DNA of 57,665 nt from a virus (IMGVR_UViG_3300042482_000462:1-57665); one strand, 5' to 3'. Counted from the stretch's first letter, positions 2,997 to 46,400 are shown. The notes: generated from the letters alone by a model not told the origin. Numbers and translations are program-made.

Positions 2997-3163
2997 GGCG
3001 CACGTTTTATCCGTGAGCGCTTGCGCTGCAGTTTGTCGGCGCACTCAGTCAGCGCCGGCACGTCGTCAGGGTGAACCCAGCGTTTCCAATGCACGCGGCC
3101 TGCTGCGATTTCGCGGGCCTTGCGCTCGGCCTGGCGCTGGGCTGCGGTCTTGGCTGCGTTCAT
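2993..3163 (-). CDS. Small basic putative DNA-binding protein, ribbon-helix-helix-like (MNAAKTAAQRQAERKAREIAAGRVHWKRWVHPDDVPAL...)
   Basis: Hand-translated 56 aa, below the ORF-track cutoff; coupled on both sides; KTxAQRQxxxKxR...WVHP pattern of small phage regulators. Confidence 0.6.
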   Translation of the reverse strand: MNAAKTAAQRQAERKAREIAAGRVHWKRWVHPDDVPALTECADKLQRKRSRIKRAP

Positions 3164-3381
3164 TTCCACGCCTGCGGGAAGTGCTGCGCAGGCAAGTGAT
3201 AGCGCAGCAAGTGCAAGATTTTTGCCCTTGCCTCATCCACTTCTGAGCGAACCGCTTTTTGTTTTCCAGGGTCGAGCCGATCAAGTCGCGCTTTGCACCA
3301 CATATCGACTTGGTTGTACGCTTCCATAAGGCCAGCGTGATAGCCCTTGTCAAACTCGCTTCGGTAGTCTTGCGTACTCAT
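3160..3381 (-). CDS. Hypothetical protein
   Basis: ORF track; ATGA coupling downstream. Confidence 0.65.
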   Translation of the reverse strand: MSTQDYRSEFDKGYHAGLMEAYNQVDMWCKARLDRLDPGKQKAVRSEVDEARAKILHLLRYHLPAQHFPQAWK

Positions 3382-3426
3382 GCTTATGCAGTCTTTGCAC
3401 TCGTAAAAATGGCTTGCGCCCTCTGT

Positions 3427-3576
3427 TTAGTTTTGGGTGACCCGCCAAATGCGGTTTGGGGTGGTCATAAGGATGTAGCCGCCGTAGGCAGCTTGGAAGG
3501 CCGAGGCATCGGCCTCGGTACGGAAGTAAGAATGGGTGCCGAGGTGATCGGCGGCAGAGTAAAAGGCGGTGGTCAT
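3427..3576 (-). CDS. Hypothetical protein (MTTAFYSAADHLGTHSYF...), first gene of the leftward operon
   Basis: Directly downstream of the leftward promoter. Confidence 0.6.
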   Translation of the reverse strand: MTTAFYSAADHLGTHSYFRTEADASAFQAAYGGYILMTTPNRIWRVTQN

Positions 3577-3611
3577 GGCGTTTGCTCTGGGTGGTGTGTT
3601 GCGATGTAGAG

Positions 3612-3640
3612 AATGTATAGCATCGTGAGCACTCACGCAA
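3612..3640 (-). promoter_or_regulatory. Leftward sigma70-like promoter TTGCGT-17-TACATT with operator-like inverted repeat CGTGAG-CA-CTCACG (3624-3637)
   Basis: Hexamers and spacing read directly; the palindrome overlaps the spacer and -35. Confidence 0.65.
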
Positions 3641-3657
3641 GGGATCGGCGCAAAGAC

Positions 3658-3686
3658 TTGCAACTGAAAACCCTTAAGGGTAAACT
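3658..3686 (+). promoter_or_regulatory. Rightward sigma70-like promoter TTGCAA-17-TAAACT with palindrome ACCCTTAAGGGT (3670-3681)
   Basis: Hexamers, spacing and perfect 12-bp palindrome read directly. Confidence 0.65.
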
Positions 3687-3691
3687 CTAGG

Positions 3692-4075
3692 TGCCAAAGC
3701 CTGACACGCTGGTAAGATTTTCCTCGAAGGCCCGTAGGTCTTTGATTCATCCTCGGCTTCATTGCCGGCTTGTCAGGCGCGGATGGGTTGAAGCAGCTTA
3801 CGGGCCTTCACCCTTTCCGGCCCGCAAGTGCGGCAGTGGGTGTGGCGTAACCGTAGTGGGCGCTAGCTGGCCCCACCGCAAAACAGGCGAGCGCTGTACT
3901 GACAAGCCCAGCGCGCGGACCTTGCAGAGGGACCGCAGGAACAGGGTAGCAAGGTGATGCACGTCTGGCCCCACGACACGGGCACCCTGGAAACCGAATC
4001 TGCCGCGCGAGCGAGTCAGGCCCCAAACAGCCTGAAAGCGAGGGACATCACCCCTCGGGCTTGTCCTATGGCTTG
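3692..4075 (+). ncRNA. Candidate large structured RNA or leader (~380 nt)
   Basis: Nested stems 3726-3738/3797-3809 and 3744-3752/3781-3789 with G-U pairs favouring the + strand; further hairpins to 4065; no credible ORF. Confidence 0.5.
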
Positions 4076-4876: not shown

Positions 4877-5155
4877 ATGCCAGCACCAATCATTGAAGAC
4901 GAGGGCATGGCCTGCGTTCAGCCGGCCGGCAGTGAAGACCAGTGCGCCGCGTGCGCCAGGCCTGCCCGCACGACCGCCGCCAAGATCATCCCGGCGATGT
5001 ACGTGACGTTCCTGCGCCTGGGCGGTGAGCCGGTTTGGGAGTGCGTGCATAGGGTGCATGTGGCGACTGTGGCACCTGCGGGCGATGCTGACAAACACCT
5101 AACCCGTGGGGGTGTCATTCATACCAGCCCCAGCAACAGGGTGGGTGCAGCATGA
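4877..5155 (+). CDS. Hypothetical Cys-containing protein
   Basis: GAGG SD; ATGA coupling to the next gene. Confidence 0.55.
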   Translation: MPAPIIEDEGMACVQPAGSEDQCAACARPARTTAAKIIPAMYVTFLRLGGEPVWECVHRVHVATVAPAGDADKHLTRGGVIHTSPSNRVGAA

Positions 5156-5352
5156 GCCTGCCCCTATCCCCGCGCGAAACAGAAGCTTTGCGCCACTACG
5201 CAGCCGGCCGGTGCGGCAAGCAAGTGGCATCTGCCATGGGCATCAGTCTGGAAACAGTCAAGAACTACAGCATGAAGCTGCGCCTGAAGCTGGGCGCGCG
5301 AACCGTCGCCCATGCCGTGGCTATTGGCCTGAAGTCTCGAATCATCAAGTGA
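5152..5352 (+). CDS. Stand-alone LuxR/GerE-type helix-turn-helix regulator
   Basis: LSPRETEALRHYAAG..KQVASAMGISLETVKNY...LRLKLGARTVAHAV matches the LuxR HTH consensus. Confidence 0.88.
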   Translation: MSLPLSPRETEALRHYAAGRCGKQVASAMGISLETVKNYSMKLRLKLGARTVAHAVAIGLKSRIIK

Positions 5353-5360
5353 GCGCATAA

Positions 5361-5729
5361 ATGGCACGCAAAACATCCGCAAGCATCGTTGCAAGCATTA
5401 CCGCAGCCCTAGAAGCCGCTGGCGATGCTGGCGCCACATACACCGATCTGCAGCGCGATTGCAGCCTGTCGCAGATGACCGTGCGGCGCTTTTGCCGTAT
5501 TGGCGTGGACACAGGCGAATACGTGGCGCAGATTGAGCACCACGCGACGGGCGTGATGGGCACAAGACGGCTGCGGATTTGGATGAAGCGCTTTGCTCCT
5601 GCAGCAGCGATTGCCGCATCGTCAATCTCCAAGCCATCGCGCGAGGTCGCATACATGCCCAAGGTTTGCGGTGCGTTTGATCGGCCCTATGTCTCGCTGC
5701 TTGAAACCGCTTACCGGGACGCACGATGA
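5361..5729 (+). CDS. Putative winged-helix DNA-binding protein
   Basis: GATYTDLQRDCSLSQMTVRRF HTH-like segment. Confidence 0.55.
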   Translation: MARKTSASIVASITAALEAAGDAGATYTDLQRDCSLSQMTVRRFCRIGVDTGEYVAQIEHHATGVMGTRRLRIWMKRFAPAAAIAASSISKPSREVAYMPKVCGAFDRPYVSLLETAYRDAR

Positions 5730-40400: not shown

Positions 40401-43400
40401 GAACCGCGCCAAGTCGTCGCTGGCCAACGAGGAAACCGACGCGACGCGGCTGCGCAAGAAACTGGGCGCGCCTTTTGAGTATCAACAAGAACTGGCCGAG
40501 AAGATCGGCGACCTGAAGCGCCTGGAAGAAGAACTTCGCGCCGAAGGAGAGGCAGAAGCCCGCGCCGCGGCGGCAGAGGTGGTGATTGACGCCACGGGCG
40601 CCAGTGAAGCAGGACAGCCGCGCGCCGACGGCGCCGCGCAGTTCAGCCGCGCCACCGGCCAGTCCACCACCCCCGCCCAGCTTCGCACCGCCCTTGAAAC
40701 CGAGTTCAGCCCTGAAACCATCGGCGCCCTTGAGCGCGCTGGCCTGCTGACCATTGGCGACCGCCCGACCGCTGGCATGCCTTCAGACGCAGCTGGTGTG
40801 AGCCAGGGCGGCAGGATTGGCCTGTTCGCCGGCAACACCCGGCCGGGCTCGACAGCCGTCGCGTACCACGAAGCCCTTCACGCCACGCTCAAGACCAGCA
40901 TCGGCGAGCAGACCTACGCTGCGCTGCTGGACCGCCTGGCGGCCATCGACAGCAAGGCCATGGCCGGTGGGGCTACGCAGAAGTTCTTTGCCCAGGCGCG
41001 GGGTCGCATCCCTGCCGACCTGACGGGCACTGAGCGGCTGGAAGAACTTGCCGCGTACTCGGTCGAGGCCGTGCAAGCCGAACGCGAAGGCACGCCGCTG
41101 GCCATCAAGCGCTGGGTGAGCGACTTCCTGGCAGCGCTGCGCGCGGGGCTTTCCAAGGCACTGCAAGCGGCAGGTGTGGGCCTGCGCATCCGGGCGCGGC
41201 TGCTGGCCGACCCGGCAACGCTGCGGAAGATCGCGCGCGACGGGCTGCAGGCAATGGCAAGGCAGGGGATGCAGGGCGATGCTGCAATGGCGTTCAGCCA
41301 GCCAGCAGCCGGCCCGAAGTGGTACAGCGCACTGAAGCAGTCCATCGCAGGCCTGAGCATGGGCGCAGCGCCGGCCCAGGGTTGGAAGGACAGTATCAAG
41401 GGGCTGGTGGCCAAGGGCGCCGTGAAAGCTGATGAAATCGAATGGACCGGCATCAACGAGTTCTTGGACCTGCAGCAAGGCAAGGTCACCAAGGCCCAAG
41501 TGATGGCATTCATGGATGCCAACGGGGTGCAGGTAACCGAGACGGTGCTGTCTGACGAAGTAGCGCGTTCGCTGCCCGCTGGTTGGCAGGTTCTGCGCGG
41601 CTACGACGACACGTTCACTGTTTCTGATGGCGACGGCAACATCATGGGAGAGGGCGAAACGGCGGCAGAAGCCGTGGCCAACGCGCAAGACGAAGACGCA
41701 GCGGCGGACACGCCGTCAATGACCAAGTACGGCCGGTACACCCTGCCTGGCGGCACCAACTACCGCGAGGTGCTGCTGACGCTGCCCACCAAGTCGTCGG
41801 GAAAGTATTGGGCCGAAGACGTAGGCACTGTTCCCGGGGTCCAGAACTGGATGGTCGCATCAACGCGCGAATCAGATGGGGAAACCGTGTATCGCGGCAA
41901 GAGCCACGGTTCACGCCAATCAGCAGAGCGAGCCATTGCGGAACTTGAAGGCGCGAAGAACTACAAGTCCAGCCACTGGGACCAGCCCAACGTCCTGGCC
42001 CACATCCGCCTGAACGACCGCACGGATGCAGACGGCAACCGGGTGCTGTTTGTGGAAGAGGCCCAATCCGACTGGGGCCAGGATGGCAAGAAGAAGGGGT
42101 TTGCCAACCCTTCAATGAAGCCGCTCACCAACAAGGAGTACCAGGCCTATCTCGACGGCCTGGTGGATGAGTACGCAGACAAGTTTGCCAAAGAGGCTGG
42201 CAGCCGTAGGGATGCTGAACGCAACGCCATCAACATGCCTATGCGTGCACTCGCTGAGGCACTTGGCAAGGCCGACGAGCTCGCCACCATGAGGGCTCGC
42301 CGACAAATGGACATTGATGGCGTGGCCGCCGTCCCGCTTGCCCCATTCGTTGGCGCCACCGACAAGTGGCTCACACTGGCCCTGAAGCGCGTCATCAAGA
42401 TGGCCGTCGATGGCAGCTACGACAAGGTGGCCTTTGTCACGGGCGAGCAAAGCGCGGATCGGTATGACCTGAGCAAGCAGGTGGACTCCATCCGCATCAC
42501 ACGAGTGGGCGCCGATGAGTTTGATGTGGCCGCCGCCGTGAAGGGTGGCGGGCGGGGCATCAGCGAAACCGGCCTGTCACTTGCACGGCTTGAAGAAACT
42601 GTCGGCAAGGAGTTGGCAAAGCGCGGCGCTGCATTGCCCGAGGGCGTCGGCGAAACCTACACCGACACGGACCTGAAAGTCGGCGGCGAAGGCATGAAAG
42701 CCTTCTATGACCAGATCGTCCCTGCCGCTACCAAGGCCCTGCTGAAGAAGCTGGGCGGCGGGCAGATGGAGGCTGTACCAATCGCGGCAGTTGAACAAGG
42801 GTTGCGAGTCAAGCCGGTTGACAGCCCGTTTGGCAAATTTGTTCTTGTCGATGGAAGCGGCAAAGAAGTAGGACTATTTGAAACGGAAGCCGAGGCAAAG
42901 GCTTACATTCGCCAAGCGGCGAAGCCGCAGCCCGGATTCGCCATCACCCCCCAGATGCGCGAGAAGGCCAGCGGTGGAATGCCGCTGTTCAGCCGCACCG
43001 ACCAGACCGCCACCGAAGCATTCAAGCGCTGGTTGTCAGCGTCATTGGCATTCGACGGCCGGCCGGATGCCTTTGCGGCGGAACATGGCGGCGACAGCTT
43101 GGCGAGTGACGCCGCATTCGTGCGCAATTTCTTTGATACGCGAACCGTTCAAGAATTTGGACTTGGCGGCTTCGACATCCCAAGTCGGCGCGTTGTGATG
43201 CGTCGAGTGCTCGGAGTGCTTGAAGATTTCAAGATTCGCCAATCTGTTGTCCAACTTATCCCCGTTGATGTGGTGAACATCCTCGGAGCGAAGCAGCTTA
43301 CGCCCAAGATGCTTTTCAACGACATGGCGATGCTCACGGATTTGCTTGCCGGCAACCGTAATGATTCGATACCCCTTGCGGTCGATGAAACCGCAAAGGT

Positions 43401-46400
43401 TGCTGACGCTGTAGCAGCGGTGACTGCAGAACATCTTGCCGCGAACCCCAAGCTCGGAAGATCGTCTGGTAACGACGGTGCCGCATTGGGCGCAGGGCAT
43501 CGTGATGCTGCCGCCCTTCGCCAAAGCGGAGCAGGCGTGCTTGCAGTAGACATTCCCGCTGGGCGAAACGGCAGACGGGAACCGGAGAACGGGCGTGGAG
43601 CACTGAGCGCAAGAGTAGAGACTTTTCATGACAGGCAACGCATTAAACATGCGATAGCCTACAACGCAGAGTCCGGCACGTCAACAATAAAGACGTTCAA
43701 CCCCGCAAGCCCTGACATCAGATTTAGCCGCACCATGGGCGAGACTCTGCGCGAGGCCGTGCCATCCGCCGCACAAGAGTGGATTGCCGACCGCGCCACC
43801 TCACAGCGCGGGTTCAACCGCCCGTGGCACCGCACCGTGGGCACCCAACTGCACAAGGCCAAGATCAACAAGGACTTCGGCCGGGTGTACTACGCTGCCC
43901 AGGACTTCATGAAGGACGTAAGCCGGATTGCCACCCTGGCATCCGACCGCGCGCCCGACATGCTTCCCCAGATCGAAACCCTGTCTGACATGGCAAAGTT
44001 GGCGCCGAGCCTGGCAAGCCCCGCAGCCTACAAGCAGCGTAAGGCCGACATCAAGGGTGCGAGTGATGCGCTGTTTGACGGCACGCTGCGCTACACCCGA
44101 AACGACGACGGCGAAGCTGTGGCCGTGGATCCTGACAGCAATGAACTGGGCGGGCTGGTGTGGACAGACGCCGAACTGCGCGACCGTGGCATGAGCGAGC
44201 GGGCCATCAAGATGTACCGGCAAAGCCGTGAGGCCATCGACCAGAGCCTGGACAGTATGCTGGCGGCAGACCTGTTCCGCCAAGCCGGTGTACTGAAGCC
44301 TGAAATGCTGGCCGACACCCCGAGCGCGCACCAGGCGCTGCTGGACGGCATGCGCAAGGCCGCTGCGTCCGACAACCCAGCGCAGGTCGGGCAGATGCTG
44401 CGCGAGGCCATTCGCGGACAACTTGAATCGTTGGGCACGGCCCTGGAAGGTCAGCCCAACCAGTACACAGACGGCCTGAAGCAGCGCCAGCAGGAACTGC
44501 GCGACCTGCAGGTGGCCATTGGCGAGAAGATCGAGCGCATCGGTTCGCTGAAGGCATCCGGCTACGCTCCGTTGATGCGTTTCGGACCTTACGCCGTGGA
44601 CGTGATCGACGCTGACGGACAGCGCATTTTCTTTGGCCTGTACGAGGGCCAGGCCGCCGCCAACCAGGCCGCGCGCAACTTCCGTGGCCAAGGACTGCAG
44701 GTCAGCCAAAGCGTGATGCCGCAAAGCGACTTTGAAGCGCTGAAGGGTGTCAGCCCTGAAACGGCCATGCTGTTTGCTGAAATGCTGGGCGTGGAGAAGA
44801 ACGAGGCCATGCAGACGTGGTTGAAGAACGCGGTGGCCGAGCAGTCGGCCCTGAAGCGCCACATCCGCCGCAAGGGCATTGAAGGGTTTGACGAGGACGG
44901 CAGCCGCGTGCTGGCCGCTTTTGTGACCAGCAACGCCCGCGCCGCATCGCGCGCCCTGCACGCTACCCGCATGGCTGACGCTGTGGAGAACGTGCGCCAG
45001 GGTGACGTGAAGGACGAGGCCCGCGCGCTGGTTGAGTACATCAACAACCCCAAGGAAGAAGCGCAGGCCATCCGTTCGCTGCTGTTCGTGCAGTACATCG
45101 GCGGCAGCGTGGCGTCAGCGCTGGTGAACCTGACCCAGACCCTGGTGCAGACGCTGCCCTACCTGAGCCAGTACGGCGGGGCTGTGAAAGCCGGGCAGCG
45201 CCTTTCCGGGGCTATGAAACTGGCCCTGGCCGACAAGATCACAGACACGGAACTGTCCGACGCTGTGAAGCGCGCCGAGAAGGATGGCGTCATCAAGCCG
45301 CAGGAAGTTTTCCAGCTGCAGGCCGAGGCCAGCCGCAGCCTGGGGTCCAACCTGTACGTGCGATCACTGCTTTCGGCCTGGGGATCAATGTTCCAGATGG
45401 CCGAGGTGTTCAACCGCCGCGTGGCCTTCATCGGCGCCTACAACACCGCCAAGGAACAGGGGATTGCGGACCCGTTCGCTTTCGCGGAAAACGCGGTGGA
45501 TGAAACGCAGTCCGTGTTCAACAAGGGCAACCGGCCAAACTGGAGCCGCGGCGCCGTGGGTGCCACCTTGTTCACCTTCAAGACCTTCACCATCCAGTAC
45601 GTGGAATTCCTGAAGCGCCTTTCGACCGCTGGCGAGCCTGGCTCACCTGAGCGCAAGCAGGGTCAGCGCGCCGCTGCCGTGGCGCTGATGATGCTGATGA
45701 TCCTGTCGGGCATGAAAGGCATTCCGTTTGCTGATGATGCAGAGGATTTGGTTGACACCGTGGCGCAGGCCCTGGGCTACAACTGGGTGACCGATGCGCA
45801 GCGCGACCGCTGGCTGGACAAGATGCTGGGCGAAACCATGTCAGACATCGTGCAGCATGGCCTGAGCGGCGTGCCCGGTGTGCCGTTCGACGTGTCGCAG
45901 CGCCTTGGCATGGCAAACCTGCTGCCCGGCACCGGGCTGCTGAAGCAGTCGGAAACCAACAAGCAGAACCAGGTGCTGGAAGTATTTGGCGTGGCCGGGT
46001 CAGCGGTAAAGGATGCCACCCAAGGCCAGGTGCTTCCGTTGGCCATCCGCAACCTGATGAAAGGCCTGGACACCTACCAGACCGGCATGTACCGCGACAG
46101 CAGGGGGCGCAACGTGGTTGAGTCTGACGGCTTGGGCGCGGCATTGAAGGCCATAGGCCTGCAGCCTTCGCGGGTGGCCAGCGCCCAACGCGACATTGGC
46201 CGGCAGATCGAGGAACGCAACCTGTACAGTGCGGTGAAGGAAGAAATCACCGACGCCATGGCGCAAGCCCGCTTCGACAAAGACGCAAACGCCGCCAAAC
46301 AGGCTGCTGCTGCGCTGAATAAGTGGAACGACACCAACCCCGAGGCGCCCATCATCATCAAGTCCCACACCATTCAGGCCCGCGTGCGGCAGATGATGCG

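Follow-up and report, generated by a model that had tools for sequence, protein, structure and literature searches.

A mirror-coded HNH endonuclease gene, probably a mobile homing cassette, inside a giant polyvalent virion gene

The locus

The viral contig IMGVR_UViG_3300042482_000462, 57,665 bp in length and 84% complete by CheckV estimate, is referred to here, as a whole, as the window; our subject is a gene for an HNH endonuclease that lies within it, wholly nested, on the opposite strand, in an open reading frame (ORF) of 5005 amino acids (aa). The giant product is also predicted by gene callers (P0003), and Pfam recognizes Eco57I/N6_Mtase and SNF2 domains in it. F116-like Pseudomonas phage proteins are 34–35% identical to its C-terminal part, the homology beginning just past the insert, and among relatives the annotations are structural, DarB-like or PLxRFG protein. 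The window's protein is a polyvalent protein (Iyer et al. 2017, PMC5512222), that is, one giant polypeptide made of many unrelated domains: it combines Eco57I/N6_Mtase, SNF2 and PLxRFG, and its homologues carry ART-PolyVal, LPD, InPase and other domains. Since the PLxRFG module lies 3′ of the insert, the host frame must stay open across the insert if it is to reach that module.

As 43042 − 31456 equals 3 × 3862, the codons of the nuclease stand exactly in register with those of the host (Table 1). The original prediction had described a Zn-finger/HNH/helix-turn-helix gene of 202 aa in this register within the giant ORF, and the Pfam and PHROG matches, the ORF list and the translated flanks agree with it. 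In the host frame the insert is bordered by ...MPLFSRTDQTATEAFKRW and TFNPASPDIRFSR. The motifs in these flanks had been likened to the two ends of an ART module without its core, and the Pfam matches in the relatives L005, L008 and L137 identify them as the start and end of ART-PolyVal; what is left of this module in the window is its start (TDQTATEAFKRW) and its end (FNPASPDIRFSR), and no Pfam match to its catalytic core (PF18760) is found in the window's giant protein. An end motif of the FNPASPDIRFSR type also follows the insert in L137, L139, L024a and L020. The tripeptide FSR occurs three times in the giant protein against 0.59 expected, at 40642 (...QFSRATGQ), 42988 (...LFSRTDQ) and 43723 (...RFSRTMGE), and five times against 0.46 expected in the related protein P0004; the two copies that flank the insert, at module borders, would fit a conserved junction motif. 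The original prediction had proposed proteolytic processing at these sites, a proposal that our results do not support. Between 43000 and 43400 the GC content dips to 0.52 and the sign of the AT skew is inverted, as expected from a foreign gene on the opposite strand. The window's own record (P0001) was searched for a second copy of the nuclease, and none was found.

Table 1. Features of the nested locus, in window coordinates
Feature	Coordinates	Strand	Basis
Host gene, polyvalent virion protein ORF, 5005 aa	31456..46473	+	ORF list; frame unbroken across the insert
FSR junction and remnant of ART-PolyVal start (FSRTDQTATEAFKRW)	42988..43032	+	Translation; intact modules in L005, L008, L012, L137 and P0004 open alike
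HNH cassette, 660 bp	43035..43694	-	Junction against nuclease-free contig; GC dip; AT-skew reversal
HNH_3 endonuclease ORF, 202 aa from ATG; stop TGA at 43044-43042	43042..43650	-	Pfam, PHROG
Promoter-like TTGACG-17-TAGGCT upstream of the HNH ORF	43656..43684	-	Sequence; lies in the ART-end remnant, here diverged (sense peptide AIAYNAESGTST)
Remnant of ART-PolyVal end and second FSR junction (FNPASPDIRFSR)	43696..43731	+	Identity with the nuclease-free allele starts here
C-terminal PLxRFG ("tail-700") module, 912 residues	43735..46470	+	NCBIfam NF032893, E = 9.3e-143, segment residues 276-901

The nested enzyme

The product of the nested gene matches HNH_3 of Pfam (PF13392) with an E-value of 3.4e-11 and a score of 43.1, against a curated cut-off of 24.8; in PHROG it matches 13 families whose annotation is HNH endonuclease and two of unknown function (best E-value 3.2e-14). 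It is built of two CxxC...CxxxC zinc-ribbon units, an HNH motif and a C-terminal helix-turn-helix (HTH). The AlphaFold2 (AF2) model has a predicted local distance difference test score (pLDDT) of 86.9, and of 83–96 in the three C-terminal helices; its best fold match in the PDB is I-HmuI (1u3e; E-value 5.5e-3, probability 0.98), and a sequence profile of the enzyme matched the PDB in its HTH part only (HTH repeats and the GcrA HTH). Among 16 relatives, all with intact ORFs, the mean column identity is 36%, and 22 columns are invariant, including C53, C56, C75, C79, H126, H127, N129, N135, N139, H148 and H152. Judged by these matches, the putative enzyme is an ordinary HNH_3, I-HmuI-like endonuclease, predicted to be an active, homing one, and the novelty lies in its way of living.

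One contig of run X5, at depth 2, lacks a base at window position 43636, which is probably a sequencing error. Loss of this base would shift the frame of the host ORF and of a nuclease started at its first Met, and would leave unaffected a nuclease started at 43629.

Embedded relatives and the stop codons they avoid

In a codon-aligned antisense register, the only codons of a passenger gene that would be read as stops in the host frame are TTA, CTA and TCA. All three can be replaced synonymously, and by the genetic code the passenger's own stop is read as Ser or Leu on the other strand; the TGA that ends the window's nuclease is TCA (Ser) in the host frame. Under these rules an element can have a start and a stop codon of its own and yet leave translation of the host frame uninterrupted, at no cost to its own protein, and it is by avoidance of the three codons that the host ORF runs on into the conserved PLxRFG module.

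The arrangement recurs. We found 14 complete embedded copies on 13 contigs of 33–66% GC, all of them in register 0, in host ORFs that range from 642 aa (L026) to the 5005 aa of the window and are each single and unsplit. One giant ORF (L024:1-4479) holds two antisense copies, at 442-987 and 1399-2028. Polyvalent-domain Pfam matches (ART-PolyVal, LPD1/5/38, RadC, ddrB-ParB, InPase, PBECR5, SNF2, Eco57I, GGDEF) occur in 11 of the 13 hosts; in the others, Pfam matches GNAT alone (L026) or nothing (L024). In IMG/VR the five best contigs besides L025 all carry the nuclease antisense, in frames that stay open over lengths between 645 and more than 3000 codons. Nine of the 28 metagenome loci examined for context, which were chosen from 80 for their long matches, are embedded (two of them cut by contig ends). 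Members of the clade that are not embedded are L025 and L145, and the fragments L142 and L151 are too short to tell. A scan of genome contigs yielded 12 distant HNH loci, none of them of the close clade; L224, the one whose context was checked, is not embedded.

Not one TTA, CTA or TCA codon occurs in the 14 embedded copies, including those at 33–40% GC; the non-embedded relative L145 has seven in 181 codons. For each copy we calculated the probability of an open host frame conditional on the Leu and Ser content of the nuclease and on the synonymous usage of its host, which is 1.3e-6 for L020 (33% GC), 2.8e-6 for L147 (40% GC) and 3.5e-4 for L141; in the L020 host, 58% of the Leu codons are TTA or CTA. 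The non-embedded L025:1894-3513 (63% GC) also has a nuclease free of stop-equivalent codons, with a mirror frame open for 193 codons, and an in-frame stop at 2476-2478 between this frame and an upstream ORF of 345 aa; it may once have been embedded, in a host frame that has since been broken, or it may lie at the end of a gene.

These figures bear on the most prosaic account of the locus, a lucky open frame in GC-rich DNA, a misassembly or a hidden intron. The host gene is 61% GC, in-register antisense frames of 300–500 codons are common in it, and the window's own frame, taken singly, could well be open by chance (the values are given below). As a control, none of the eight other long antisense ORFs in the gene has a Pfam match, and the AT-rich relatives are open at probabilities near 1e-6. 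Contigs from runs X3 and X4, which belong to other studies, span both junctions of the insert with no differences, so that the arrangement is not a misassembly. An intron was rejected because Rfam gave no match at E ≤ 1 in 42000-44700 on either strand, and a spliced insert would not need to be stop-free and in register, which argues against splicing; an intein was rejected because the sense translation of 42850-43900 has no Hint domain or other Pfam match at E ≤ 0.1 and the endonuclease is on the other strand. The original prediction had likewise described the gene as lacking an intron or intein. Chance and artefact are largely refuted by the family data, and we consider this account very improbable.

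The strand under selection

In one codon alignment, 91 of 91 pairs have a higher amino acid identity in the nuclease (mean 0.393) than in the mirror peptide (mean 0.257), and nucleotide identity at nuclease codon positions 1, 2 and 3 is 0.50, 0.60 and 0.38, the last value placing synonymous sites near saturation. Purifying selection acts in the nuclease frame. The expectation that selection would be confined to the minus frame, with avoidance of TTA, CTA and TCA, is thus borne out by the pairwise comparisons and by the absence of stop equivalents from the 14 copies.

The same data speak to the idea that the mirror peptide is itself a selected, folded domain and both strands are functional. The mirror family is large, and the best AF2 model of the peptide is helical, with pLDDT of 73–88 over about residues 21–110 and 121–140 and below 50 over 147–203, which would favour dual coding and to that extent weigh against a mere by-product. 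Against this, the means of the five AF2 models disagree (62.7, 57.1, 45.0, 40.8 and 37.8), the mirror alignment has a single invariant column, its third codon position (position 1 of the nuclease) is not the most variable one, and the mirror is the less conserved reading in every pair. The sense translation of 42850-43900 matches no Pfam (E ≤ 0.1) or PHROG family. We regard dual coding as improbable. The mirror peptide was also considered as a diverged ART core, which was rejected, as hhalign gives a probability of 1.4% and aligns the end motif only.

An allele with ART-PolyVal in place of the nuclease

A protein search with the region just downstream of the insert found P0004, a protein of 3644 aa, encoded on a 47,367-nucleotide (nt) contig, which is 100% identical to the window's protein in that region; the alignment of the two proteins continues beyond the position of the insert for about 800 residues without a difference and then has nine substitutions near the C-terminus. 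Its order is ...AFSRTDQTTTEAFKRW + FGDSKVVDAQGRPLVVYHGT...EQIKSATGNSGQ + FNPASPDIRFSRTMGE..., and the middle is ART-PolyVal, to which the profile of alignment A4 matches at residues 2577–2731 with an E-value of 1.8e-31, in agreement with the precomputed Pfam assignment (PF18760). P0004 thus carries an intact module between FKRW and FNPASPDIRFSR, as expected of a nuclease-free relative if the nuclease had replaced the inside of an effector module, and supports the replacement that the original prediction proposed. At the DNA level, a 47,367-nt contig of run X12 (depth 63.6) has two differences from the window in the 48 nt of 42987-43034, has 429 other letters between 43034 and 43695, where the window has 660, and is identical to the window over 43695-44900. 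The core of P0004 comprises 144 residues between W and F, or 432 nt; 3 nt of these are common to both alleles at the edges, which leaves the same 429. Taken together, the joint and the core make the cassette at 43035-43694 allelic to the ART-PolyVal core. Near-identical phages carry one allele or the other. Neither of two further searches, one of IMG/VR for exact 40-nt matches to the right flank that would reveal the nuclease-free allele (none found, so that this allele is absent from that collection) and one of the phage collection with the DNA of 41500-45200 (short, distant matches only), added to this pair.

The slot exists in other states as well. ART-PolyVal is intact in L005 and L008 (E-values 2.7e-20 and 9.5e-13); L002 has neither the ART core nor the nuclease (...TEAFDAGNTDIRFSR...), so that presence and absence of the nuclease vary at a fixed site between similar genomes; and L230 has a different module, GNAT-like by eye. 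In L137, the closest relative of the window's nuclease (59% identity), a full-profile ART-PolyVal at residues 1515-1660 is followed directly by the antisense nuclease at residues 1665-1862. All four combinations of ART and nuclease thus exist among the relatives, and the state of the window may have arisen in two steps, insertion at the ART end motif and then loss of the core. More broadly, the giant proteins of the window and P0004 are mosaics, 98% identical over the C-terminal ~925 aa and 84–95% identical in N-terminal stretches, with different modules in the middle; module content turns over fast between very close phages.

Insertion sites and the nuclease tree

The embedded nucleases occupy several types of site. 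The first is the ART-PolyVal end and junction motif, used in the window, L137, L139, L024a and L020; at the second, occupied by the nuclease in L141 and L147, the corresponding place in L012 holds an intact ART-PolyVal; the third is marked by "W.RPLSEQP..VRKAL" in L026, L148 and L143, with L010 as the apparent empty form, judged by eye; and further flank types occur besides these three. In the maximum-likelihood tree of the nucleases, the window groups with L137 (support 100/99), L020 with L024a and L139 (98/96) and L141 with L147 (99/99). Mapped on this tree, the site labels require four changes, the minimum possible, which none of 200 shuffles equalled. Subclades that track site types in this way are what site-specific homing with occasional moves would be expected to leave.

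An alternative of another kind accepts the mirror-coded nuclease as real and takes it for a passive passenger, no longer homing, that spreads only by ordinary module shuffling at conserved junction DNA or now serves the phage in some other, domesticated role. Relatives do differ in the module that fills the slot between UP and PLxRFG, FSR junction motifs recur, the window protein and P0004 are mosaic in several places, and homing activity is deduced from sequence. A passenger of this kind is hard to reconcile with catalytic and zinc residues that have remained invariant in 16 intact sequences at so low a mean identity, with nuclease subclades that follow site types, with a sharp presence/absence boundary beside a 100% identical flank, and with an element found at no fewer than four unrelated site types and more than once in one protein. 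We think it unlikely.

Proposed mechanism and its weak points

The interpretation that we prefer, with a probability of roughly three in four, is that the window contains a mobile HNH homing-endonuclease cassette, mirror-coded inside a giant polyvalent virion gene. The 660-bp cassette, an I-HmuI-like HNH_3 gene with a short upstream region, stands in place of the 429-bp ART-PolyVal core, and the host ORF bears the cost of a mirror filler of about 220 aa between two FSR junctions. The host protein would be translated through this segment and would tolerate it, polyvalent proteins being strings of modules that are independent of one another. The nuclease, transcribed from a weak antisense promoter of its own, would cut or nick the nuclease-free, ART-bearing alleles of co-infecting relatives, and repair would copy the cassette in, driving both the spread of the enzyme and the turnover of modules; the original prediction saw in it a possible weapon against such relatives. 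Homing is suggested by the enzyme family, by the sharp allele boundary with its identical flank, and by site fidelity.

Several observations weigh against this interpretation, or against the force of the evidence for it. The first concern expression: transcript, protein and nuclease activity are putative, and the promoter described in the original prediction as near-consensus, with a leaderless start, is doubtful on both counts. The motif is present, and L137 keeps it as TTGACA-17-TACGCT, yet its -10 element matches at three of six bases and a sigma-70 scan of 42700-44000 returned no sites; moreover, the L137 nuclease begins about 30 nt further downstream, at the codon that corresponds to the second Met in the window, so that ATG 43629, giving a product of 195 aa, is more likely to be the conserved start, and the start codon in the window is uncertain. 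A second group concerns the statistics. Taken by itself, the window would have an open host frame with a probability of 0.30 given the TTA, CTA and TCA usage of the host (0.57% together) and 0.13 given the Leu and Ser content of the nuclease, which is unremarkable, so that the case beyond chance rests on the family; there, the summed log10 P of −29.2 over the 14 copies overstates their independence, since the copies are related and "embedded" was itself scored through open frames, although synonymous sites are near saturation. Context was examined at 28 of the 80 metagenome loci. The third group concerns the allele pair. An identical downstream flank would also be expected from ordinary mosaic recombination between close relatives, and N-terminal stretches of the two giant proteins are near-identical as well; and the nuclease of L137, standing beside an intact ART-PolyVal, indicates that replacement is not intrinsic to the element.

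Relation to known systems

The window's enzyme resembles the I-HmuI-type HNH_3 homing endonucleases in its HNH_3 motif, its multi-domain build with a C-terminal HTH, its occurrence in phages and the presence/absence polymorphism at a defined site. I-HmuI is encoded in sense orientation inside a self-splicing group I intron. The window's gene, by contrast, is antisense, without an intron and in a host ORF that is read through, and its product has one or two N-terminal zinc ribbons in addition. Inteins and group I and II introns also let an endonuclease gene occupy an essential gene at low cost, with the difference that here the cost is not removed by splicing and the extra peptide apparently stays in the protein. 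Overprinted antisense genes likewise consist of two long ORFs on opposite strands of the same DNA; in our case neither frame has arisen de novo, a foreign gene having been inserted with its host-frame reading as a by-product.

Comparable in lifestyle are free-standing endonuclease genes whose presence divides the host gene into two polypeptides, for which passages of PMC2988022 describe mobE in Aeh1 nrdA, mobA in T4 gene 60 and seg in gene 43. These too lie in an important gene without intron or intein, and since they were already described, the proposal that the window shows a "third way" besides introns and inteins was an undercount. The two products of a split gene must reassemble, whereas the window's host ORF remains one unbroken frame, owing to an insert that lies antisense in register and contains no stop equivalents. 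The words "homing", "antisense" and "opposite strand" do not occur in the main text of PMC5512222, and antisense endonuclease passengers fall outside its description of polyvalent proteins. In the literature searched we found no description of in-frame antisense endonuclease genes, which does not disprove that one exists.

Antisense residence seems to occur in further HNH_3 lineages as well, in one case in an intein-like terminase insert and in another in a DNA methylase gene. In L119:1949-4471, and also in L121, L127 and L131, an HNH_3 and HTH ORF lies antisense, in register 1, inside an ORF of 821–1010 aa; in L119 it has 291 aa (3061-3933, plus strand; Pfam E-value 2.1e-9). The hosts in L119 and L131, the two that were scanned, are terminase large subunits by PHROG. 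The terminase match in L119 is in two stretches around an intein-like insert with a Hint N-terminal match at aa 140–168 and borders, by eye, at NL|CVAVGTPI... and ...GLINKN|SD; the mirror of the nuclease covers host aa ~179–470, roughly the position of an intein's endonuclease domain. In L100:4294-6384 (33% GC) an HNH_3 ORF of 173 aa (4896-5414, plus strand; Pfam E-value 3.3e-11) lies antisense, again in register 1, in a 697-aa DNA methylase ORF (N6_N4_Mtase, 1.5e-31, in two stretches) that exceeds its uninterrupted homologues, such as that of Klebsiella phage Kpn BU9, by about 190 aa. Many mycobacteriophages and the Cylindrospermopsis phage Cr-LKS3 have an HNH match under a coding sequence (CDS) annotated as DNA methylase. 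In Mycobacterium phage Bipolar (L229, 46390-48396) the HNH match is in sense orientation within a 668-aa CDS, apparently inserted in frame on the sense strand with no intein involved.

Scale and implications

A profile of the mirror peptide, searched against 1.84 billion representative proteins, matched 2243 at E ≤ 1e-3, 455 at E ≤ 1e-10 and 124 at E ≤ 1e-30. Among the best 150 matches, which are annotated as ordinary long proteins, 128 have at least 1000 aa (median 2333 aa), the match is internal in 127, 36 also have ART-PolyVal, and five (P0096-P0099 and P0104) have two mirror segments each; a profile of the nuclease itself, in sense, matches none of the 150. The segment is carried by four of 92 PLxRFG giant proteins. 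Behind each of these matches an intact antisense nuclease may be supposed. It seems moderately probable that they represent a large, undescribed guild of mirror-coding homing endonucleases, distinct from introns, inteins and gene splitting, which would reside at polyvalent-protein junctions across hundreds of lineages of phages and be the force by which effector modules, ART-PolyVal among them, are gained, lost and replaced.

If this is correct, phages would possess a further solution to the problem of a selfish nuclease gene that occupies a gene its host needs, in which nothing is spliced and the host's ribosome reads the mirror image of the intruder. Annotation is affected as well: gene callers predict the giant ORF but overlook the nuclease, and many giant phage proteins would contain segments of some 200 aa that do not constitute domains. 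The pair of alleles, with the nuclease in the window and ART-PolyVal in P0004, comes from related lake-water phages and would lend itself readily to experiments, given a host for these phages or a reconstruction of both alleles in a model phage. For the polyvalent anti-defence proteins, such cassettes would provide a concrete driver of their rapid module turnover.

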